Part shown: in pieces, positions 5,585 to 31,764 of the stretch
Layout: each line of letters opens with the position of its first letter
How positions within the stretch are numbered: position 1 is the stretch's first letter
Position numbers and translations under genes: made by a program
Notes under the pieces: model-generated
The model's database searches: none
What the model was told of the DNA's origin: nothing
Seen by the model: only the letters and a program-made list of their open reading frames with translations
Source of the DNA: a virus
Lineage: Duplodnaviria > Caudoviricetes
Strand: one strand, 5' to 3'
IMG/VR virus record: IMGVR_UViG_3300042401_001464
Location: 1-31,764 of that record
Length of the DNA: 31,764 nucleotides

Positions 5585-5943
5585 TCTTTGTGTAGGTAGC
5601 CATTTACTAAATTACTTACCGCAAGTGCCACACCTGCTAAACCTAAACCACCGATGATCCATAGTGGATTATCTTTTAATACTCCAATCATACCGGAAAC
5701 CGCCACAACACTCAATAATAATACTGCGAACATAGGCATTATTCCTTTTGTGTTTGTTACCTTATCAATTCTTTCTACCCACACCAATCTCTCAATTGCA
5801 TCCTGCATGTCTTTTCCGTATGCTGGAACGTCGTGGATTGTTCCATCAACTTCTTGTATGGTTACTTTGTATTTAAAGTATCCTGGGTGATCTTTACTTT
5901 CTCTAATTAGTTCTGCTTTTGTTGCTTTTCTTCTACTCTTCAT
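5581..5943 (-). CDS. Hypothetical membrane protein (2 C-terminal TM helices)
   Basis: 120-aa ORF with hydrophobic C-terminus; ATGA overlap with the next gene. Confidence 0.75.
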   Translation of the reverse strand: MKSRRKATKAELIRESKDHPGYFKYKVTIQEVDGTIHDVPAYGKDMQDAIERLVWVERIDKVTNTKGIMPMFAVLLLSVVAVSGMIGVLKDNPLWIIGGLGLAGVALAVSNLVNGYLHKE

Positions 5944-5963
5944 TTTTGTTTTGTTTCTTTTTA

Positions 5964-5971
5964 CAAATGTA
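5964..5971 (-). promoter_or_regulatory. Bacteroidota-type sigmaA -7 element (TACATTTG)
   Basis: Matches TAnnTTTG; recurs at 6815-6822, 7961-7968, 9249-9256, 9348-9355, 17089-17096, 19976-19983. Confidence 0.65.
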
Positions 5972-6005
5972 TGTATTTATTTTAATTATGTCTGTGAAAT
6001 GTCTG

Positions 6006-6143
6006 TTAATTATTTAATGTTAAATTAACTTTACTTATTATTTTTCTAATGGTGGTCAATATTGATATATTTTTATTAGCATCTTTTCTTAATTTTTCTC
6101 TACTAGATTTAATAGTGCCTTCAATAACTATTCGTGTCTTCAT
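6006..6143 (-). CDS. Possible small basic protein (45 aa, MKTRIVIEG...)
   Basis: ATG..TAA just downstream of tRNA-Ala; no motif recognised. Confidence 0.35.
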   Translation of the reverse strand: MKTRIVIEGTIKSSREKLRKDANKNISILTTIRKIISKVNLTLNN

Positions 6144-6165
6144 ATTTTAATTTAATTTTTTTTCG

Positions 6166-6241
6166 TGGAGCAGGTAGGAATCGAACCTACCACATACGCT
6201 CAGTGCAAATGAGCCCCGCCAGCCTTGGTACATGCTGCCCC
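6166..6241 (-). tRNA. tRNA-Ala(TGC)
   Basis: GCTCA-TT-TGC-AC-TGAGC; G3:U70; atypical D arm. Confidence 0.85.
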
Positions 6242-6299
6242 AAATTGAAGGAAGACTAACCTTCTTTGTCCTTTGTACGTAGGGACTTTTAAGTCTTTT

Positions 6300-6375
6300 T
6301 GGGCGAGAGACGGGCTTGAACCCGCGACCTTCTGGTTGGAAGTCAGATGCTCTAAGCCAACTGAGCTACTCTCGC
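6300..6375 (-). tRNA. tRNA-Gly(TCC)
   Basis: GCGAGAG acceptor; anticodon loop CT-TCC-AA. Confidence 0.9.
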
Positions 6376-6385
6376 GTTTATTTTG

Positions 6386-6459
6386 TACCGATAGCGGGAC
6401 TTGAACCCACAACCTTGACGATATAAGCGTCCTGCTCTCACCAATTGAGCTATATCGGC
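6386..6459 (-). tRNA. tRNA-Ile(TAT)
   Basis: GACG-CT-TAT-AT-CGTC; full cloverleaf. Confidence 0.88.
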
Positions 6460-6468
6460 GTTTCAAAG

Positions 6469-6542
6469 TAGTCCGTATGGGATTCGAACCCATGATCTTC
6501 TCATAGAAAGTGAGACGTGTTAAACCACTTCACTAACGGACC
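6469..6542 (-). tRNA. tRNA-Glu(TTC)
   Basis: TCTCA-CT-TTC-TA-TGAGA. Confidence 0.92.
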
Positions 6543-6552
6543 ATATATTTTG

Positions 6553-6636
6553 TGGGAACCGCGGGATTCGAACCCGCTCAGGCGTAAGCCACTTGTTTTA
6601 CAGACAAGCCCGACTCTCCAACGTCGGCGCGCTCCC
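6553..6636 (-). tRNA. tRNA-Tyr(GTA)
   Basis: CTTGT-CT-GTA-AA-ACAAG; long variable arm. Confidence 0.92.
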
Positions 6637-6643
6637 ATAAACG

Positions 6644-6675
6644 AAAAAACCCAATCTGTTTTGCAGACTGGGTTT
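6644..6675 (-). terminator. Attenuator terminator 1, directly 5' of tRNA-Tyr
   Basis: AAACCCAGTCTG-CAAAA-CAGATTGGG-TTTTTT. Confidence 0.85.
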
Positions 6676-6698
6676 ATCATATTTTGTAATCTTTACAA

Positions 6699-6785
6699 CT
6701 ACTCAACAGACAAAGTCAGTCCACTTACAAAGCTACCCGCTTCATATGCATACCCTATGGCTTCTATTTTGTGTGTTGTTTTCAT
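6699..6785 (-). CDS. Putative attenuation leader peptide 1, MKTTHKIEAIGYAYEAGSFVSGLTLSVE
   Basis: 28 aa between promoter boxes and terminator; 11-codon run of I/E/A/G/Y only. Confidence 0.8.
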   Translation of the reverse strand: MKTTHKIEAIGYAYEAGSFVSGLTLSVE

Positions 6786-6916
6786 TGTTTTAGTTTTTAT
6801 CGTTGTTTCTTTTACAAATATAAGTATTTTTCTTTTACTTGTTCTATATATATTATATTTTTTTCCTCTCTTTTTGTATTTTATCGAAAATAAGTGAAAA
6901 AGTTTTATATTTTTTG

Positions 6917-7000
6917 TGGAAAGCTACGGAATCGAACCGTATACCTTTAGGTACCCACTGTTTTCAAGACAGGGCTGCAGGCCGCTGCAGTTCATCTTCC
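6917..7000 (-). tRNA. Atypical tRNA-Ser(TGA) with 6-bp D stem, imperfect acceptor stem and A73
   Basis: CTGT-CT-TGA-AA-ACAG; long variable arm; GGTTCGATTCC. Confidence 0.7.
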
Positions 7001-7002
7001 AT

Positions 7003-7089
7003 TGGCGGAGAGCAGAGTATTTGAAACCCATTCCTTTCAGAACCACTCGCTTAGCAGGCGGTGTCAGGGACCTCCCTGATTTACTATCC
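7003..7089 (-). tRNA. tRNA-Ser(GCT), 8/4-type fold
   Basis: CGC-CT-GCT-AA-GCG; G73 plus encoded CCA; long variable arm. Confidence 0.8.
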
Positions 7090-7096
7090 ATTTTTG

Positions 7097-7184
7097 CGGA
7101 AAAAGTCGGGCTCGAACCGACACACCACTGGGGCCTACGCATTTCAAGTGCGCTGAGCTTAGTCCTCACTGCTCTTATTTTTCC
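7097..7184 (-). tRNA. tRNA-Ser(TGA)
   Basis: GCGCA-CT-TGA-AA-TGCGT; G73; long variable arm. Confidence 0.85.
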
Positions 7185-7189
7185 TTTTG

Positions 7190-7261
7190 TAGTCCCAGAG
7201 GGATTCGAACCCCCACCTGATCGGCCGTAACGACCTGTCCTGTCCAGTTAGACGATGGAAC
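7190..7261 (-). tRNA. tRNA-Arg(ACG)
   Basis: GGTCG-TT-ACG-GC-CGATC. Confidence 0.88.
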
Positions 7262-7272
7262 TATATAAACAC

Positions 7273-7304
7273 AAAAAACCCTCGGCGTTTAGTCCGAGGG
7301 TTTT
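7273..7304 (-). terminator. Attenuator terminator 2, 5' of tRNA-Arg
   Basis: AAAACCCTCGG-ACTAAACG-CCGAGGG-TTTTTT. Confidence 0.85.
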
Positions 7305-7330
7305 ATTTATATGATACAATTAAAGTATTA

Positions 7331-7408
7331 CTAACTAAATAAACACGTCAGATCTATCACTCTACTCGAGCGACTTAAACTTGACGATATGTTAATAATA
7401 GTTTTCAT
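7331..7408 (-). CDS. Putative attenuation leader peptide 2, MKTIINISSSLSRSSRVIDLTCLFS
   Basis: 25 aa; TCG TCA AGT TTA AGT CGC TCG AGT AGA run. Confidence 0.78.
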   Translation of the reverse strand: MKTIINISSSLSRSSRVIDLTCLFS

Positions 7409-7437
7409 AATTCTTTATTTGTTATATATTATAAATG

Positions 7438-7988
7438 TAGTTCTTTGTTTAGATTATTCTTTCTTTATATCTAAAAGCTGTTTACGTATTTTTCTAAAAT
7501 CTTTTCTTGAATAACCTGATAATCCTTCTTTATTAAATTGTCTGTATAATTTTGAGCAATAGTTAATCTGTTGGTTGATTGCATAGTCTCTACGTTCTTT
7601 CCATGAATCTGTAAAAGGATGATTTTGCATTTCTTTACGATTTCGATATACACTATCACAAAATGTAATCTCGGAGTCTAAAATGGGACTACGTGTATTT
7701 ATATATTTAGTTACCCATTTTTCACGTTCTAATATCTTTTGTCTTTTGTGAATATTTTCTTCGTTTTTTTTATTACGCCACTCTTTAAAAGTCTGTGGGT
7801 GTGAGTTTATATAACTAGAGTTAATATATCCAGAGTAACTATACGAATAGTATTGTCCGTTGATTACTCCGTGACCATTGATACTATAATATTGTGCTGA
7901 TACCAAAATACACGTTAGTAACGAGATGGTCAATAAAATTATTTTTGAATTTCTCATATACAAATATAGTTCTTTGTTTAGATTATTC
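7438..7988. repeat. 22-bp direct repeat TAGTTCTTTGTTTAGATTATTC (7438-7459 and 7967-7988) flanking one ORF
   Basis: Exact match read from the sequence. Confidence 0.9.
7454..7963 (-). CDS. Hypothetical secreted protein
   Basis: 169 aa with an N-terminal signal peptide; TATATTTG at the 5' end, so the true start may be the second Met. Confidence 0.7.
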   Translation of the reverse strand: MYMRNSKIILLTISLLTCILVSAQYYSINGHGVINGQYYSYSYSGYINSSYINSHPQTFKEWRNKKNEENIHKRQKILEREKWVTKYINTRSPILDSEITFCDSVYRNRKEMQNHPFTDSWKERRDYAINQQINYCSKLYRQFNKEGLSGYSRKDFRKIRKQLLDIKKE

Positions 7989-8004
7989 CTAATCTTTTTA
8001 TTTT

Positions 8005-8135
8005 TGGTAGGGAGGTGGGATTCGAACCCACGACCACGCGGTTAACAGCCGAAGTAACTCTTCTATTCGGCACTCTTGCGAGGCAAAGTTATAAATGAGT
8101 ATTGTACGTGCTCTACCAACTGAGCTACTCCCTAC
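8005..8135 (-). tRNA. tRNA with GTT (Asn) anticodon interrupted by a 55-nt insert (8052-8106) in the 5' strand of the anticodon stem
   Basis: Canonical D arm (TAGCTCAGTTGGTAGAGC) and T arm; removing the insert restores CGCGG-CTGTTAA-CCGCG. Confidence 0.8.
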
Positions 8136-9973: not shown

Positions 9974-10557
9974 AATAATTTTTTATTTTTTGAGCCGTCA
10001 TTTGCGTATTTTATACCCATAATTGTACCTACGATGGAGAATGCATTTGTCAGTAGTATACTTACTAAGTTACTCCATGCTGGTCCTATTATGTTTGTTT
10101 CTTTATTTAGTATTATTGCAACTATATAAAGTGATGTTGCTACAACACCAACACCTATTATTATCCATATTGAAACTTTTACAACTGTGTTTATAAGTTC
10201 ATATTGTGTTCTTTTACGTATTATTTCTAAGTCTTCCTCAGCAACCTCTTTGGCCTTTATTGCGTTTTGTTTAGCTATTTCTGCGATGTTTAATGCATTT
10301 TTCAGTTCCTCACCTATCCTTACATTTTCATCTTTCCATTCTAACAATTCTCTATTTTGTGTTTGTATTTGTTTTGTTATAACTAATCTTTTTCTTCGAT
10401 TGTTTTTATCCTTATCTGTTGCAATTTTAATATATTCTTTGAATTCTAAATCTGTATCATCTGTTTCAATTACTTTAAGAATATTACCTTCCAAATAGAT
10501 ATTATTTATCTTGGCTAATTCGAGAAGGTCTTTCTTTGTATCTTTACAGAGTTTCAT
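9970..10557 (-). CDS. Coiled-coil protein with 2 C-terminal TM helices (holin or lysis-regulator candidate)
   Basis: Hydrophobic segments; ATGA overlap with lysozyme. Confidence 0.6.
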   Translation of the reverse strand: MKLCKDTKKDLLELAKINNIYLEGNILKVIETDDTDLEFKEYIKIATDKDKNNRRKRLVITKQIQTQNRELLEWKDENVRIGEELKNALNIAEIAKQNAIKAKEVAEEDLEIIRKRTQYELINTVVKVSIWIIIGVGVVATSLYIVAIILNKETNIIGPAWSNLVSILLTNAFSIVGTIMGIKYANDGSKNKKLL

Positions 10558-10988
10558 TATTTATATATTTTGAAATTTGCAGTCCTGTTCACATAAGATG
10601 GATAGTCCTTTTTAAATTCTTCTAGTCTTGGTTCTATATCATCATTCTTTATTATCCAAAATTGTGCACCTGCTTGTAGTGCTTTGGCTTGTTCGGTTGC
10701 TTCATTTGAAGATGAGATGATGCCTATAACAACGTGATTTCCATATTCAAAGTTTATTCTTCTGACTAATTCTATTCCGTCAAATGTAGAGCCTATTATA
10801 TTTAAGTCTACAAATACACAAACTGGTCTTCCTGTTGGATTTTTGTGCCATTTTGAGAATTTATTGGATGCCTCATCAGCGCTATCTATACATTCTAATG
10901 TAAGTGAAATATCGAGTAGACTACAAGCGTCTTCAAAAACTAAGTGAAATAGAGACTCATCGTCTACGAGTAGTATTGAATCAATCAT
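10557..10988 (-). CDS. Stand-alone response-regulator receiver domain
   Basis: ILLVDDE; VFVDLN (phospho-Asp); DGIEL; IISSS; WIIK. Confidence 0.9.
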   Translation of the reverse strand: MIDSILLVDDESLFHLVFEDACSLLDISLTLECIDSADEASNKFSKWHKNPTGRPVCVFVDLNIIGSTFDGIELVRRINFEYGNHVVIGIISSSNEATEQAKALQAGAQFWIIKNDDIEPRLEEFKKDYPSYVNRTANFKIYK

Positions 10989-12759
10989 TTTTATATTTTA
11001 TTTTTATTTTAGTACCACCAATGTCTACCTTTTCACATGACACTTTGAATCCATGTTCTTTAAGTATTGCAATGCAGATATTAAGTCCTAAACCAGTTCC
11101 TGATTCCTTTTGGTCAGCTTTTCGCGCATATGGTTTAGAGTATATATCAAATTCTTCTTGTGTTAGTCCACGTCCGTTGTCTTGTATGGCTATTGTATCA
11201 TCGGTATCGTGATATATTTTAACTATTCTGGTTGGACTGTCATTGTATTTTAGACCATTTCTTATTAGATTATCTATTGCCGTACAAAATAGAGATTCGT
11301 TAACTTCGATAGTTGGTAAATTATCAGATAATATAACTGCTTCTTTGTATGCGGTTGATTCTAAATATCGGTTAAGTATTTCTTTTATATTATATGGTTC
11401 AATTTCCAGTACACTATCCTTTTTTACCAGATTTGTAAATTCATACACACCTTTATAAACACGTTGTGTGTGAGTGAGTCCTTCTTTTAGAAGTCTTATT
11501 GGTGCCTCTAATTTATATTCTTTTATTATTTCTGGTTTTAGTCTTCGTATCAATGAGTTTATTCCTTTTGGAATATAGGTATTTATACCTGAGTGCATAT
11601 CGTGTCTCAATATTTTGGCGGCGTGTTCTAAGTATGTGTTTTTCTTTTCGATTTCAATTGATGCATCAACGATTTTGGTTACGTCTTGTCTAATTGATGT
11701 GAATCCGATATGTTCATTAGTTTCTGGATCAAAATCTGCCTTTATATAGGTATCTACAAAATAGTGATGTCCATCTTTTGACTTATTGGTAACAACCTCG
11801 TTCCATATTTCTCTTTTGTTTATTGTGGTTGTGTACATATTTTTCCAAAATTCTTTGTTATGTATACCGGAGCTCAATATTTGATGGTCTTTACCCATAA
11901 CTTCTTTAGTTTTCCATCCTGAAACTTTTGTAAATTTTTCATTGACATAAGTTATTCTACCTCTTTTGTTTGTTTTGGAGACCAACATTGCAGTGTCCAT
12001 AAAATTCTCAATTTCTACAAGATTTTTTTTAGTATCATTACCATCTGCAATTGACCATGAGAATGAGTATAATGATGATAATACTTGTGCGAAATTAACT
12101 TCGGTGTCTATCCAATTTCTTTTGGTGTAACTCTCAATACAAATAACACCTATTGTTTCACCTCTGAATAAAATTGGTACATCTATTAGAGATTTTATAC
12201 CAAGTGGTTTTAGATAGCTTTCGTGTAGACATTCTGTTGCTAAATTTGTTTCTGCATCGTCTGCAACTATAACTGGGTTGGTTAGTAATTCATTGAAATA
12301 TGATAGATAATCACTATATTCTAAACTACCACCCGTTGACCAATCATTATCGGATAATTTATAGAGCATATCCAATTCAATTGATTTAGTTTGATCGTTA
12401 TACAACCAAATTCCACATCTATCAACACCTAAATTTTCAACAACATCTTTGGTTAATATTTTTGAACATTCTAATAAATCGCCATCGTAAAAAACTGGAT
12501 TATGTGATTGGTTTATAAGTGTTAAATTTAATTTATTTGTATAATTATTTAATTTTTCCGCATCTTGTGCTCTTATTAGGTGATCTCTTACCATTCTAAA
12601 GAAAAATGGTAGGGTTGATAAAAAAAATAATATTTCGATTGTTTTTGTACTTGATGAAGTTTCTAATATATCGGTCAACATAAGTAACTTTAGTATAAGG
12701 TAACCCACGGAAAAGGCACTTGTCATTATTATGTTTGTGAGTGTTCTTTTACTAATCAT
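10981..12759 (-). CDS. Membrane sensor histidine kinase (TM-GAF-PAS-HisKA-HATPase)
   Basis: GAF (GIKSLIDVPI..GVICIE); PAS (GRITYVNEKF); H box LRHD; N box NLIRNGLKY; DNGRG; GTGLGL. Confidence 0.93.
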   Translation of the reverse strand: MISKRTLTNIIMTSAFSVGYLILKLLMLTDILETSSSTKTIEILFFLSTLPFFFRMVRDHLIRAQDAEKLNNYTNKLNLTLINQSHNPVFYDGDLLECSKILTKDVVENLGVDRCGIWLYNDQTKSIELDMLYKLSDNDWSTGGSLEYSDYLSYFNELLTNPVIVADDAETNLATECLHESYLKPLGIKSLIDVPILFRGETIGVICIESYTKRNWIDTEVNFAQVLSSLYSFSWSIADGNDTKKNLVEIENFMDTAMLVSKTNKRGRITYVNEKFTKVSGWKTKEVMGKDHQILSSGIHNKEFWKNMYTTTINKREIWNEVVTNKSKDGHHYFVDTYIKADFDPETNEHIGFTSIRQDVTKIVDASIEIEKKNTYLEHAAKILRHDMHSGINTYIPKGINSLIRRLKPEIIKEYKLEAPIRLLKEGLTHTQRVYKGVYEFTNLVKKDSVLEIEPYNIKEILNRYLESTAYKEAVILSDNLPTIEVNESLFCTAIDNLIRNGLKYNDSPTRIVKIYHDTDDTIAIQDNGRGLTQEEFDIYSKPYARKADQKESGTGLGLNICIAILKEHGFKVSCEKVDIGGTKIKIKYKND

Positions 12760-20646: not shown

Positions 20647-20658
20647 GGTGGCATTTTT
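20631..20658. terminator. Bidirectional terminator
   Basis: aaaaatgccacc-ctaa-ggtggcattttt. Confidence 0.85.
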
Positions 20659-22190
20659 TATGCTAAAACTGTTTCGGTTCCACTTTTAGTGAGAGCCTCA
20701 ATTTTACCTCTAATCTCTGTAAGTGTGGTTTCGTTGTAAAACTTACCATCTTCGTAGATAACTTGAAGGATTCCTTCTTTCTCTTCGTCAAATGTGCATT
20801 GTACACCTACTGAGTGGTCACCATCTTCTGTTTCATGAACCGAGATAAGTCCTTTCAATGATTTCTTAGTTCCATCATCTGAGATTGGATCTTTGTAGAT
20901 ATCGTGTTGAACTCCATTCTCTTCGAACCAAGCACCTTTTGCTGCAAATCCAAATGTATCACGCGTATTGTATTGGTAAGTATAAGAACCTACACCTAAA
21001 ACAATGTTCGTAGCTGCAAAACCTTTCTCTGCTAATCTCTCATAGATTTGAACCTGACGATCGGTCGTAATAGAGTCACCGTAAATGGCACCGATGTGTG
21101 GGTCTAAGACTTTATATCCTTGTTCATTGATTGTTCCACCAAAGATGTCCCATAAACACTCAATCAATCCTTTTGTGTAGAACTCTGGATAGAATGCGCG
21201 GTTCTCATTATCTGTTAATTCAGTTCTTCCGTGTCCACAGATGATTTCAACTGGATCTCCAGAGTCAGGACGAATAACTAACTTACCATCACGAGATAAG
21301 ATTTGGTCTTTCAGGTCGAAGCAATATCCACCTTCAGATGGTTTGGCAACTTTTGTGATGTCGAACGTATCCATTACTACTGATAAAATACCTTTATCAA
21401 ATTTGTTCATCCAATCGATTAACATTTGTTTCTCACCAACGGTGAAAATTTTGGTAGTAGATACAGAGTGTTCTGATGCATTTACAGAGTTGATACAAAC
21501 TTCATTCTTAGGCTCACCATAGAAGTAACGAGCTGCTGGAATAACTACAATAGTATCAGAACCTCTAAATGACGTAGCGTGTCCTAAGCCAGATGAAACC
21601 ATCGTCCAAGGATCGATACCACGTGCTGAGAAGTCGTGTGCTAAGAAAGGAATCAACCAAGCGTTAGTAGGGTCTGTCTTTAGTACCCACTCGTAAAGGT
21701 TTCGGTTGTACTTAAGTGCGATTGTTGCGGATGTTGCAGGTTTCCACGCCAAAGATGACACGATTGTCTCTAAGAAAAGAGTAAGCCAAGCGTATCCTTT
21801 CTTTGTGTTGACGAACGTCATATGTGGCACGTTCGGTCTTGTCTCGATTCCCTCAGGAAGAGCTTTTGCTCTAATTGGTAAGTAACCTAATTTATGAAGA
21901 GTAATAAAGTGGTCTCCATTAAATTCCATACCTAAATATATACTCATATCTTCAACGAATGATATAGCTTCTTCAACTGGCTTGTTGAAAAAGTTTTCAG
22001 TGAATTCGTCATGAATCCATCGCCAAGTTAGTTGTTGTCCAAATGATACAATTTTATTGATACCTTTTGGTGCGTGTTTTGTAGAACGTGGAATCCATGT
22101 CCCATAAAGGAAGTCAGTTCCTTCTGCGAGCATCGCTTTGTGGCCAATCTTGTAGCCGTCTGTGTAATACAGTGATGTGGGTCTAAACAT
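20658..22190 (-). CDS. nadV: Nicotinamide phosphoribosyltransferase family protein (NAMPT/NadV; probable Namat of NARP1)
   Basis: TDGYKIGH; HDFSARG; ASEHSV; VIRPDSGDP; IYGDSIT; RDTFGFA; KKSLKG. Confidence 0.92.
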   Translation of the reverse strand: MFRPTSLYYTDGYKIGHKAMLAEGTDFLYGTWIPRSTKHAPKGINKIVSFGQQLTWRWIHDEFTENFFNKPVEEAISFVEDMSIYLGMEFNGDHFITLHKLGYLPIRAKALPEGIETRPNVPHMTFVNTKKGYAWLTLFLETIVSSLAWKPATSATIALKYNRNLYEWVLKTDPTNAWLIPFLAHDFSARGIDPWTMVSSGLGHATSFRGSDTIVVIPAARYFYGEPKNEVCINSVNASEHSVSTTKIFTVGEKQMLIDWMNKFDKGILSVVMDTFDITKVAKPSEGGYCFDLKDQILSRDGKLVIRPDSGDPVEIICGHGRTELTDNENRAFYPEFYTKGLIECLWDIFGGTINEQGYKVLDPHIGAIYGDSITTDRQVQIYERLAEKGFAATNIVLGVGSYTYQYNTRDTFGFAAKGAWFEENGVQHDIYKDPISDDGTKKSLKGLISVHETEDGDHSVGVQCTFDEEKEGILQVIYEDGKFYNETTLTEIRGKIEALTKSGTETVLA

Positions 22191-22202
22191 TTTATTTTAT
22201 TT

Positions 22203-22841
22203 TTATTTATTATCTTCGAATATAAGTGTGAATCTTTTTTTTGATAAACTCCATCTCATTTTATAATAGACGAATATGTACTCAGTCTTTTTATCGTCTT
22301 TATAGTTTTGTAGAAAAGTAAATGTCATCCATTTCAATTTTTTACTTTCAATTGCATCCGACACTGATTTTATAGAAATTATTTCATAAAATAAAGAATC
22401 TGAACATGTGCAACTTTCATTTTCGTCAAAAATACGTAAAACAATGTCATTTTTTATTGTGTCTGACATATAATAAAAGAAACGAATTATTGAAAACTCG
22501 GCTTTCGGATCATCTATTTCTTCACTTATAACATATTTTAGTTTTTCGTTGTTTTCAAATAATAATTTCCTTCTATCTGCGGCCAATGTGTTAATCTTTA
22601 CATTGACATCTTTGTTAGTCATAAAAATACCATTCTTATGAATATGTTTTGCAATAGTTTCTATTAAGTTTATGGAATCGTATTCGTGTAAATATGAGTA
22701 AGTGTGTCCATTATCCACAAAGTAATATTCCTTTAGGTTGGGTTCCTCATAATATATTGGTGTGTCCGCCTGTGAGAGACTAAAAAACGAAAATGATATA
22801 ATAAATATCGTTAGCATTCTGTTTATCACATCAGTTCTCAT
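22203..22841 (-). CDS. Hypothetical secreted protein
   Basis: 212 aa with a signal peptide. Confidence 0.7.
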   Translation of the reverse strand: MRTDVINRMLTIFIISFSFFSLSQADTPIYYEEPNLKEYYFVDNGHTYSYLHEYDSINLIETIAKHIHKNGIFMTNKDVNVKINTLAADRRKLLFENNEKLKYVISEEIDDPKAEFSIIRFFYYMSDTIKNDIVLRIFDENESCTCSDSLFYEIISIKSVSDAIESKKLKWMTFTFLQNYKDDKKTEYIFVYYKMRWSLSKKRFTLIFEDNK

Positions 22842-23028
22842 TATATTTTCTTTTATTATGTTCTTTCTCTATTCCTTTCGCCAAACATTCGTTTTGAGAT
22901 TCCTCTTCAAATACTCCACCCATAAAGATAAAGAATATTCCTGGTAATGAAAGTAAGAAAGAAGGTATTATAAGAATCATTCCGAATATCCTAAATATGG
23001 CTCCTAATATGTTGATCATTTTTCTCAT
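22831..23028 (-). CDS. Small membrane protein
   Basis: 65 aa, hydrophobic N-terminal half; overlaps both neighbours. Confidence 0.6.
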   Translation of the reverse strand: MRKMINILGAIFRIFGMILIIPSFLLSLPGIFFIFMGGVFEEESQNECLAKGIEKEHNKRKYNEN

Positions 23029-23441
23029 ATCTCGTATATTCCTGGTTCGTCTGACTCGTCCAAAAAACGGAATTTTACCATAGTCTTTCCGACTAATTCG
23101 TGTGTCGACGTTTTGTTAACGTTTTCTATTTCTCCTATTGTGTATGCGGTTCTTACAGAATCTGGTATTCCTTGTCGTATACACATTTCAGAATAAAGTC
23201 TGTGAATTTCTTCCGCAATCTCTCTAACCTTCTCTGGCTTAGTTGTACATCCAGGATGTACATCCTCGTCCATAGGTATAACAATTTCGTCTTTGAACCT
23301 CTCGTTTATATACTCTGCAATAGTCGCGACATTTTCTTGAAAGGATTTAGGTGTCTCGGAAAGGAAATGACAATACTTTATCCAATCACCAGGAACACCA
23401 TCTTTTGGACATATCTTTGTGTATATAACTCCGTATTCCAT
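23025..23441 (-). CDS. Hypothetical protein
   Basis: 138-aa ORF in operon context. Confidence 0.75.
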   Translation of the reverse strand: MEYGVIYTKICPKDGVPGDWIKYCHFLSETPKSFQENVATIAEYINERFKDEIVIPMDEDVHPGCTTKPEKVREIAEEIHRLYSEMCIRQGIPDSVRTAYTIGEIENVNKTSTHELVGKTMVKFRFLDESDEPGIYEI

Positions 23442-23442
23442 C

Positions 23443-24252
23443 TTATACCGTTTGTGGTTTGTTAAAAACTGTTCCTTCTAAAAGATAAACAAGATCATAA
23501 GTTGTCAAATTGTTGAGCTCGTAATATCCGAATTTCGAGTTGGTTGTGAATATTTTGTCATAGTGCTGCTCCAACTCAGGGTTAGGATTCTGAACCGTCA
23601 TATGTGATACTGCTAAGTAAAGTTTACCCGCGTTTCTTTCTTTCAGAAGTTTAGCCAAACCAACAAAAGTTCCTCCAAAAACACAAAGGTCATCAATAAC
23701 AAGAATATCTTTACCCTCAAAGTCTTCGTTCTCGATTACTTGCGTTAGCTTGTGTGTGATTAGGTCTCTCGACTTACTCGCACTATACACCTCACCCTCG
23801 AACTTAATTTTATCTGCTAATTTATTGATCCATTTGAACGATCCTGCGTCAGTTGATAAAAGCACCGGTTCCTGTTCCAGGTCTTTTAGAACCTGTGATA
23901 TAAAAGCACTATTGTCTACGACTCTAGCGTTTCTCACTCCCATTCCTGTTGAATCTGAGTGTGGATGGAATATTGTAACCTTGCTAAAATCACAAGAGTT
24001 GATAAAGTCTGCAACAAGTTTTAGTTCAAAAGACTCATTGTCTGCAAATCTACGGTCGTGTTGTTGTTGGAACATGCACGGTATAAAAAGCTCTACATCG
24101 TTTACTCCGTTAAAGTCACAAACGTCTTTGATCGACTTTATAAAGAAAAGGTCCTCGTATGAATTTATCCTCTCTACAATCTGTGGATTGGTGAAGTCTT
24201 GTACCTCTGCATAAATACCACCATCGGGATATTTTTTTCTAGTATATTTCAT
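23443..24252 (-). CDS. prs: Ribose-phosphate pyrophosphokinase family protein (probable Adps of NARP1)
   Basis: YPDG; QHDRR; HPHS; STDAGS; KSRD; VIDDLCVFGGTF; AVSH. Confidence 0.88.
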   Translation of the reverse strand: MKYTRKKYPDGGIYAEVQDFTNPQIVERINSYEDLFFIKSIKDVCDFNGVNDVELFIPCMFQQQHDRRFADNESFELKLVADFINSCDFSKVTIFHPHSDSTGMGVRNARVVDNSAFISQVLKDLEQEPVLLSTDAGSFKWINKLADKIKFEGEVYSASKSRDLITHKLTQVIENEDFEGKDILVIDDLCVFGGTFVGLAKLLKERNAGKLYLAVSHMTVQNPNPELEQHYDKIFTTNSKFGYYELNNLTTYDLVYLLEGTVFNKPQTV

Positions 24253-30557: not shown

Positions 30558-30560
30558 TTA

Positions 30561-30770
30561 TAGATTAGTATTATCGACACCTTTACCCTTTGGACTTAGT
30601 CAGTTCGTCCGTTCGGGTTCTGTACTCGCTTCTTTCCGACTTGATTTCTAATCCTTGTCGGTTATAGCTTTCCTCCCAGTCCACGTATTGTTTGCGCAAC
30701 TATCCGTGATGCAAAGGGTCAGATCATTTGCACGATGGCTATTCCCTCCATCTTATCGATTACTAATCTA
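30561..30770 (-). ncRNA. Unknown ~210-nt structured RNA between two tRNAs
   Basis: Closing stem TAGATTAGTA-ATCGA / TCGAT-AA-TACTAATCTA; several internal helices; no ORF. Confidence 0.65.
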
Positions 30771-31513: not shown

Positions 31514-31597
31514 TTTTATCTATATATATATATTTTTTCACCACTTCGAACCATATAAAAATGGTTTTGATTAGTATCAAAGAACGTTTTTTTTTGT

Positions 31598-31704
31598 TGT
31601 GTGTACGGGATTCGAACCCGTACACACTACCAAAATTTCTATGTCTGCAAACATTTCGATTTTGGCTCTCGTAGGTTGTTGCAGCAACCTTTGATAATCT
31701 TAGC
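31598..31704 (-). ncRNA. tRNA-like element: 11-bp minihelix capped by a TTCGAAT T loop, preceded by two hairpins
   Basis: GTGTGTACGGG-TTCGAAT-CCCGTACACAC-A. Confidence 0.5.
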
Positions 31705-31706
31705 TG

Positions 31707-31764
31707 TGGAGCTAATGGGATTCGAACCCATGACCCCTTGCCTGCCAGGCAAATACTCTAGCCA
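31707..31764 (-). tRNA. tRNA-Ala(GGC), 5' end outside the window
   Basis: TTGC-CT-GGC-AG-GCAA; 3' end TAGCTCCA (U70). Confidence 0.85.

Follow-up and report, generated by a model that had tools for sequence, protein, structure and literature searches.

The locus studied here raises the question of whether a virus can control transcription of its tRNA genes by attenuation, that is, through a short translated leader and a terminator placed ahead of them. It lies in a viral contig, of which we analyzed a stretch of 31,764 nucleotides (hereafter the window). The original prediction had proposed such an attenuator in front of five tRNA genes (unit A1), and, as far as can be judged from sequence, this reading was borne out: a leader ORF, codons matching the tRNAs, a suitably placed antiterminator segment, and a terminator all held up, and they recur in relatives with co-varying tRNA content. 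We consider it very probable that A1 is a ribosome-mediated transcription attenuator, most likely one through which the supply of charged tRNA feeds back on the tRNA genes. The features of A1 and of three sister units (A2 to A4) are listed in Table 1.

Table 1. Features of unit A1 and of its sister units in the window (ends in window positions)
Feature	Start	End	Strand	Basis
A1 candidate Bacteroidota-type -7 promoter element, TATATTTG	6815	6822	-	TAnnTTTG pattern upstream of leaders
A1 leader ORF, 28 aa	6699	6785	-	frame retained in 21/22 orthologs
A1 regulatory run, codons 7-17, only Ile/Glu/Ala/Gly/Tyr	6735	6767	-	codon reading
A1 8-bp hairpin over codons 14-20, candidate pause (1:2) hairpin	6726	6746	-	predicted fold
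A1 predicted antiterminator hairpin (6724-6717 with terminator 5' arm 6670-6663)	6663	6724	-	folding
A1 intrinsic terminator, 12-bp stem and U tract	6644	6675	-	sequence features; ortholog pairing
A1 tRNA-Tyr(GUA)	6552	6636	-	ARAGORN
A1 tRNA-Glu(UUC)	6468	6542	-	ARAGORN and Rfam tRNA model
A1 tRNA-Ile(UAU)	6385	6459	-	ARAGORN and Rfam tRNA model
A1 tRNA-Gly(UCC)	6301	6375	-	ARAGORN and Rfam tRNA model
A1 tRNA-Ala(UGC), atypical	6165	6238	-	ARAGORN; absent from Rfam tRNA model listing
A2: Ser/Arg leader 7408-7331, terminator 7304-7273, tRNAs Arg, Ser, Ser-like, Ser	6918	7408	-	
A3: His/Lys/Phe/Trp/Asn leader 9202-9083, terminator 9062-9033	8006	9202	-	
A3 tRNAs: His, Phe, Lys, Trp, Lys, His, Phe, Lys, and interrupted Asn gene further on			-	
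A4: Pro/Gln/Asp leader 29649-29551, terminator 29529-29500, tRNAs Pro, Gln, Asp, Pro	29171	29649	-	

The eleven-codon run of the A1 leader (IEAIGYAYEAG) is restricted to the amino acids of the five downstream tRNAs, its codons reading exactly as had been claimed. A run of this length was found in 0 of 5866 same-length stretches taken from the proteins of the window, and eleven codons drawn from the same five amino acids occurred at a frequency of 2.7e-5 among 300,000 simulated peptides. Both Ile codons of the run had been singled out as ATA, matching the UAU anticodon. They are indeed ATA, which taken alone is unsurprising because this is the commonest Ile codon in the genes of the window (255/510); support for its significance comes from the relatives described below. 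The element TATATTTG at 6822-6815 is a candidate -7 motif of the Bacteroidota type. A TAnnTTTG-type element was found upstream of most A1 orthologs and, in the larger set of 62 leaders introduced below, upstream of 22/62, as compared with 5/62 on the reverse complement.

The tRNA genes of A1 start a few bases downstream of the terminator. The genes for tRNA-Tyr and tRNA-Ala were called by ARAGORN only and must be considered atypical, because the general tRNA model of Rfam lists neither at its gathering score. The spacer between the Gly and Ala genes (6240-6300) contains two small hairpins with a terminator-like score on the plus strand, and in orthologs a further tRNA is often present there.

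The A1 terminator begins 23 nt past the stop codon of the leader. In agreement with the original prediction, the segment UGGACUG (6723-6717), 11 nt past the run, can pair with CAGUCUG (6670-6664) in the 5' arm of the terminator. The helix grows to 8 bp, position 6724 pairing with 6663, and closes a longer hairpin with a predicted energy of -22.5 kcal/mol.

RNA folding with ribosome constraints, suggested as a check along with the original prediction, gave a divided answer. At equilibrium, no switch was seen: with the full-length A1 transcript and a ribosome mask, the terminator had a probability of 0.89 to 0.98 whatever the position of the ribosome, and values of at least 0.72 were obtained at every position in all four units of the window. 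A switch appeared at the end of the run when we used co-transcriptional snapshots, in which the RNA is cut at the terminator loop to mimic a 3' arm still inside the polymerase, with an assumed ribosome footprint. The 5' arm of the A1 terminator was then sequestered with a probability of 0.77 to 0.78 with the ribosome at any position up to Gly17, and of 0.03 with the ribosome at Val20; when the footprint was varied between 3 and 15 nt, this predicted switch point moved by four codons. In each of the four units of the window, the predicted switch coincided with the end of the run. The energy of the A1 snapshot fold was equalled by 0/1000 synonymous recodings, and the sequestration probability alone by 67/1000 recodings and 190/1000 shuffles. 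Since the terminator wins everywhere at equilibrium, the switch depends on kinetics (that is, on the snapshot and the assumed footprint), and in these models it appears to be visible only as a kinetic, co-transcriptional choice.

The three sister units also match their own tRNAs. When codons 6-20 of each leader were scored against each of the four tRNA sets, the own set accounted for 11, 8, 10, and 7 codons (A1 to A4) and the other sets for 0 to 4, so that each leader scored best against its own block (4/4 units). The run PQDQDQP of the A4 leader, for instance, precedes tRNAs for Pro, Gln, Asp, and Pro. The longest run of A3 was not significant by itself (p = 0.09), while its best window gave p = 0.01. 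The Met and Trp tRNA genes near 30.5-30.8 kb are devoid of such a terminator. Some peculiarities of these regions, all on the minus strand, deserve mention. The tRNA-Asn(GUU) gene at 8006-8134 carries a 55-nt insert in its anticodon arm, and a second, less certain interrupted tRNA gene lies near the end of the window (31596-31755; both are intron calls by ARAGORN). In A2, a degenerate tRNA-Ser-like gene at 7003-7090 has a GCU anticodon by eye and no proper ARAGORN call. Ahead of A2, a 169-codon ORF (7963-7454) is flanked, by eye, by direct repeats of about 21 nt (7437-7987) and looks inserted between two copies of a promoter region.

To obtain orthologs of A1, we used patterns targeted to this unit, which identified 7 unit loci among 47 viral matches and 19 among 19 metagenome matches; after exclusion of four duplicates and of L642 and L643, the alignment comprised 23 units. 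Because the metagenome pattern preset the amino acids of the run and its first Ile codon, the conservation of these is by construction. The second Ile codon, which was not preset, is ATA in 23/23 units, with variable Ala and Gly codons flanking it, while Ile codons closer to the start are mostly ATC or ATT (32/43). The retained reading frame shows synonymous variation, and the spacer after the stop codon differs in length in 15/22 orthologs. In one ortholog (L629), the leader has lost one base, and its stop codon thereby lies immediately ahead of the antiterminator; an assembly error and a variant switch are both conceivable. Relatives were also represented in RNA sequencing data, where four of six listed runs (each with a share of 0.08 or less) yielded short contigs of relatives only.

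Base pairing in these 23 sequences differed among the three hairpins. The terminator had 100% of its cells paired and two pairs with two-sided change, and the hairpin over codons 14-20 had 90.8% of its cells paired and one such pair. The antiterminator helix showed no two-sided change in the 23 sequences; it showed eight one-sided changes from G-U to A-U, and 13 of its 138 cells were unpaired, 12 of which came from a shifted register in four divergent relatives. The snapshot switch was predicted in 23/23 units, with a sequestration of 0.61 to 0.78 at the end of the run and of 0.00 to 0.41 three codons further on.

The tRNA genes behind the terminator vary in order and copy number among the orthologs, and all those called belong to the Tyr/Glu/Ile/Gly/Ala set with one exception, an extra tRNA-Thr in L624, the leader of which contains Thr codons. 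In a 642-kb phage the block is split: tRNAs for Glu and Tyr follow a leader in which Glu, Tyr, and Gly codons abound, and those for Ile(UAU) and Gly follow a second leader (with VIAIGAG) that has no Tyr or Glu ahead of the pairing segment. The codon match is imperfect in this phage because the first leader retains Ile, Gly, and Ala codons. Three Ile/Gly/Ala-type units (L656, L665, and L178) have no Tyr or Glu ahead of the pairing segment, the leaders of L665 and L178 being of the second kind just described. Thus, the run lacks Tyr and Glu in units that have no Tyr or Glu tRNAs behind the terminator.

We also searched for this arrangement beyond A1. With a pattern consisting of a hairpin, a T tract, and a tRNA T-loop, 124 viral loci (from 8 of the 64 parts of the collection) yielded 89 terminator-plus-tRNA units; one narrow pattern has about 1100 matching stretches in the collection, of which these 124 loci were examined. 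Other patterns were less productive. One based on the terminator tail only gave 95 loci with two true units, both on one contig, and patterns anchored on anticodons returned few units (16 among 119 loci and 5 among 120), the matches being largely noise. We defined a leader as an ORF whose end lies 12-45 nt ahead of the terminator. Of the 96 distinct viral units for which sufficient upstream sequence was available, 82 had one, versus 14 of 59 units from cellular genomes; the other 45 cellular units had none, and some of the 14 ORFs are ordinary protein ends. The leader-terminator-tRNA arrangement is common among viral contigs. In a 634-kb phage, similar terminators with short upstream ORFs were observed before protein genes rather than tRNA genes (L651:12994 and L651:21537).

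Among 62 non-redundant viral leaders (<45% identity, doubtful rows retained), 396 of 1409 inner codons were cognate to a downstream tRNA, as compared with 203 ± 17 after permutation (maximum 268 in 20,000; z = 11.6), a figure to be read with the reservation that the units are not fully independent and the permutation is tree-free. A codon for the first downstream tRNA was found in 56/62 leaders, as compared with 37 expected. The terminator arms paired better with their own leader than with those of other units (z = -12.2 for the whole arm and -6.9 for its variable part), the own leader ranking first for only 13 of the 62 arms, with a median rank of 10. Cognate codons had a density of 0.34 to 0.45 over codons -12 to -3 ahead of the pairing segment, as compared with 0.14 to 0.18 over codons 0 to +3. 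In the snapshots, predicted family-wide sequestration was 0.62 with the ribosome at cognate codons versus 0.19 at the stop codon; it was higher at the former in 54/56 units and below 0.5 in 13/56.

The arrangement is also found on bacterial chromosomes. In the family of Chitinophaga oryziterrae, 6/201 genomes matched the pattern. Five of these matches were examined: four had a leader containing cognate codons, as well as a pairing segment (e.g., QQQSYYSSNSWSQYS, which precedes tRNAs for Trp, Ser, Gln, and Tyr), and one had no leader by our criteria. This patchy spread, as seen with a narrow pattern, suggests mobile islands. Tandem attenuator-like units, with two leaders and two terminators before the tRNAs, were observed on chromosomes of this family (L298, L255, L309, L646, and L649). 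Outside Bacteroidota, we noted a leader-terminator-tRNA unit before a Phycisphaera array of eight tRNAs (L261:1502, minus strand) and an Asn-rich leader before a tRNA-Asn in a 1-Mb genome (L285:1502, minus strand).

Taken as an attenuator, A1 would work as follows. RNA polymerase would reach the tRNA genes only if a ribosome had stalled within the Ile/Glu/Ala/Gly/Tyr run. With the ribosome at or before Gly17, the segment 6724-6717 is predicted to capture the 5' arm of the terminator while the 3' arm is still inside the polymerase. A ribosome that had advanced by another two to three codons would cover this segment, and the terminator would form. The signal would be the supply of charged tRNAs for the codons of the run, and feedback would be negative, the tRNAs that are made stopping their own transcription. 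The four modules of the contig would each monitor a separate codon family.

The least certain step is the nature of the shortage to which the units respond. The most serious alternative is that A1 is a plain sensor of amino acid starvation, as in biosynthetic operons, with tRNA abundance not being the selected signal; the attenuation mechanism would be the same and only the input would differ. A stalled ribosome cannot distinguish a missing amino acid from a missing tRNA, and amino acid limitation should therefore also open A1. Most leader codons match at the level of the amino acid only: a strict codon-anticodon match was sought and not found for Ser, Leu, Lys, and Glu, nor was a general match to isoacceptors, and a bias toward wobble codons ending in U was not significant (z = 1.5). 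On the other hand, two codon preferences fit sensitivity to particular tRNAs. Units with tRNA-Ile(UAU) use ATA for 5/5 inner Ile codons versus 24/82 elsewhere (p = 0.003, from two independent families only), and a chromosomal unit (L646) uses it for 8/9 Ile codons versus 16/47 in flanking frames. Cognate codons of the four-fold families (Ala, Val, Thr, Pro, and Gly pooled) lean toward a final G (41/86 versus 59/299, z = 4.1), Pro alone showing no such excess. Because the genes controlled are those of tRNAs, and more tRNA would not cure a lack of amino acid, we judge amino acid starvation a rather unlikely selected signal, and tRNA shortage, arising from heavy phage translation or from depletion of host tRNAs, the more likely input. 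A tentative extension, which is possible at best, is that the phage modules keep the tRNA pool of the host under surveillance. They would be codon samplers wired to matching spare tRNAs, tuned to particular tRNAs (through ATA for Ile-UAU and through G-ending wobble codons), and would fire upon tRNA destruction by defenses such as anticodon nucleases, providing an inducible counter-defense and an RNA-only tRNA homeostat that is also carried on islands in Bacteroidota chromosomes.

An improbable alternative is a terminator that acts as a fixed, leaky, or protein-controlled stop (overridden, e.g., by a phage antitermination factor), with the leader playing a minor role or one limited to general ribosome-polymerase coupling. 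The dominance of the terminator at equilibrium agrees with such a stop, as do the snapshots without any ribosome, in which the 5' arm was already sequestered in A1 (0.77), A3, and A4 (range 0.76 to 0.87); A2 alone released it (0.11). Because of this, any block of translation would be expected to give read-through in these three units, A1 included. Default termination of the untranslated RNA was accordingly not predicted for A1, A3, or A4. Such super-attenuation is known for trp and is not required of all attenuators. What a fixed stop leaves unexplained is that leader codons track the tRNA content, that cognate codons end just before the pairing segment, and that terminator arms prefer their own leader.

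Still less credible is the idea that the ORF encodes a small functional peptide, or belongs to a trans-acting RNA, with a hairpin used for RNA processing and an incidental codon match. The frame and the C-terminal half are conserved among close orthologs, which speaks for it, but the conserved half is the part involved in base pairing, and the leaders of different units have no common sequence beyond an MKT- or MRT-like start, yet match their own tRNAs. Finally, short ORFs abound (positions 5800-8000 alone are overlapped by 36 with a length of 20 aa or more), the five amino acids of the run represent 31% of the 6433 codons in 21 ORFs of the window, and the A3 run is unimpressive by itself, but a chance arrangement in AT-rich intergenic DNA is refuted by the statistics of the A1 run (p about 3e-5), the agreement of all four units, and the permutation of the 62 leaders, leaving it a negligible probability.

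The contig likely derives from a giant phage: it is a virus record, and when compared with phage records its DNA best matched two uncultured phages, 634 and 642 kb in size. A scan with PHROGs matched 9 of 28 proteins; an endolysin and a terminase-like protein were among them, together with a nicotinamide phosphoribosyltransferase and a PRPP synthetase. A bacterium of the Bacteroidota is the likely host, as indicated by the motif of the TATATTTG type, the scarcity of Shine-Dalgarno-like words (9/62 leaders), and the best protein match, which is to Tenacibaculum phages (63%, a cyanophage being next at 61%). On the minus strand, the contig further contains an NAD salvage pair (the nicotinamide phosphoribosyltransferase and the PRPP synthetase) and, adjoining the endolysin, a kinase gene paired with a receiver-like gene (20658-24252 and 10557-12759). 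A GC-richer stretch between the tRNA-Trp and tRNA-Met genes (30560-30770, minus strand), for which Rfam gave no match at the gathering score, is possibly a non-coding RNA.

The carriage of tRNA genes by phages is a long-standing puzzle, explained either by codon compensation or by the replacement of depleted host tRNAs. The leaders would name the codons that a phage monitors, hence the tRNAs at risk, and they predict that phage tRNAs are synthesized on demand. If this is true, attenuation would extend to non-coding RNA targets, and tRNA genes would be under direct feedback control. The presence of a unit in a cultured Chitinophaga strain (C. oryziterrae JCM 16595, L298) makes the idea testable, and leaders of this kind could help to assign atypical tRNA genes or serve as codon-specific sensors.

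The classical attenuators of amino acid operons comprise trpL, hisL, pheL, and the multivalent leaders of thr (thrL) and ilvGMEDA. In its sequence features, A1 resembles a classical multivalent leader-peptide attenuator. It shares with this group a short leader ORF containing regulatory codons, a terminator hairpin with a predicted antiterminator as its alternative, a U tract, and putative multivalent sensing. It differs in that the classical elements control enzymes, whereas here the targets are tRNAs and a single run covers five amino acids; in its location in a viral genome, with several modules per genome; and in that the untranslated state of A1 is predicted to read through. In Rfam, the amino acid leader families (His, Trp, Thr, Leu, and Phe) gave no match to A1 at the gathering threshold; the sole signal from any of them was that of His_leader on A2, with 23.6 bits as compared with the 49 needed.

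Attenuators of aminoacyl-tRNA synthetase genes (pheST and the Streptomyces trpS and leuS genes) are closer, as there too the supply of charged tRNA controls the translation machinery. Their output is a protein serving one amino acid, whereas the output of A1 is the tRNAs themselves, which would close a direct feedback loop. The trpS and leuS elements appear in the text of PMC1262725, which also gives actinobacterial examples from amino acid operons. In that source, exchanging candidate regulatory codons ahead of the Streptomyces ilvB gene reportedly changed nothing, a warning that the look of an attenuator can mislead. T-box riboswitches resemble A1 in that the charging state of a tRNA governs a terminator. 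They bind uncharged tRNA directly, without translation, whereas A1 is proposed to rely on translation of its leader, and the T-boxes of PMC2494555, as far as its text describes them, are located at tRNA-ligase genes rather than tRNA genes. No T-box match was obtained in Rfam at the gathering score, nor up to an E value of 5.

The switching on of spare tRNAs has a parallel in the Anabaena trn operon, one of the L-arrays, which have also been reported from Bacteroidetes; this spare tRNA array is induced under translational stress (main text of PMC8421152). Control is there exerted by a protein repressor, as described for a tRNA operon and TrcR in the text of PMC10272220, and the main text of PMC8421152 mentions no leader, terminator, T-box, or riboswitch. 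The discussion in PMC10264068 of host tRNA depletion and its offset by phage tRNAs offers a purpose for units such as A1, the text at hand proposing no sensor or regulation of phage tRNA expression. The arrangement is present in two published huge-phage genomes; the main text of PMC7162821, on such genomes, mentions neither attenuation nor a leader. In their accessible parts, PMC2494555, PMC8297930, PMC11109978, and PMC2965389 do not concern attenuation of tRNA genes, and we found no description of leader-peptide attenuation of tRNA genes in the literature, where subscription papers or supplements could list such elements. The mechanism proposed for A1 is thus one known from amino acid genes, and its class of target, tRNA genes, is new as far as the literature searched shows.
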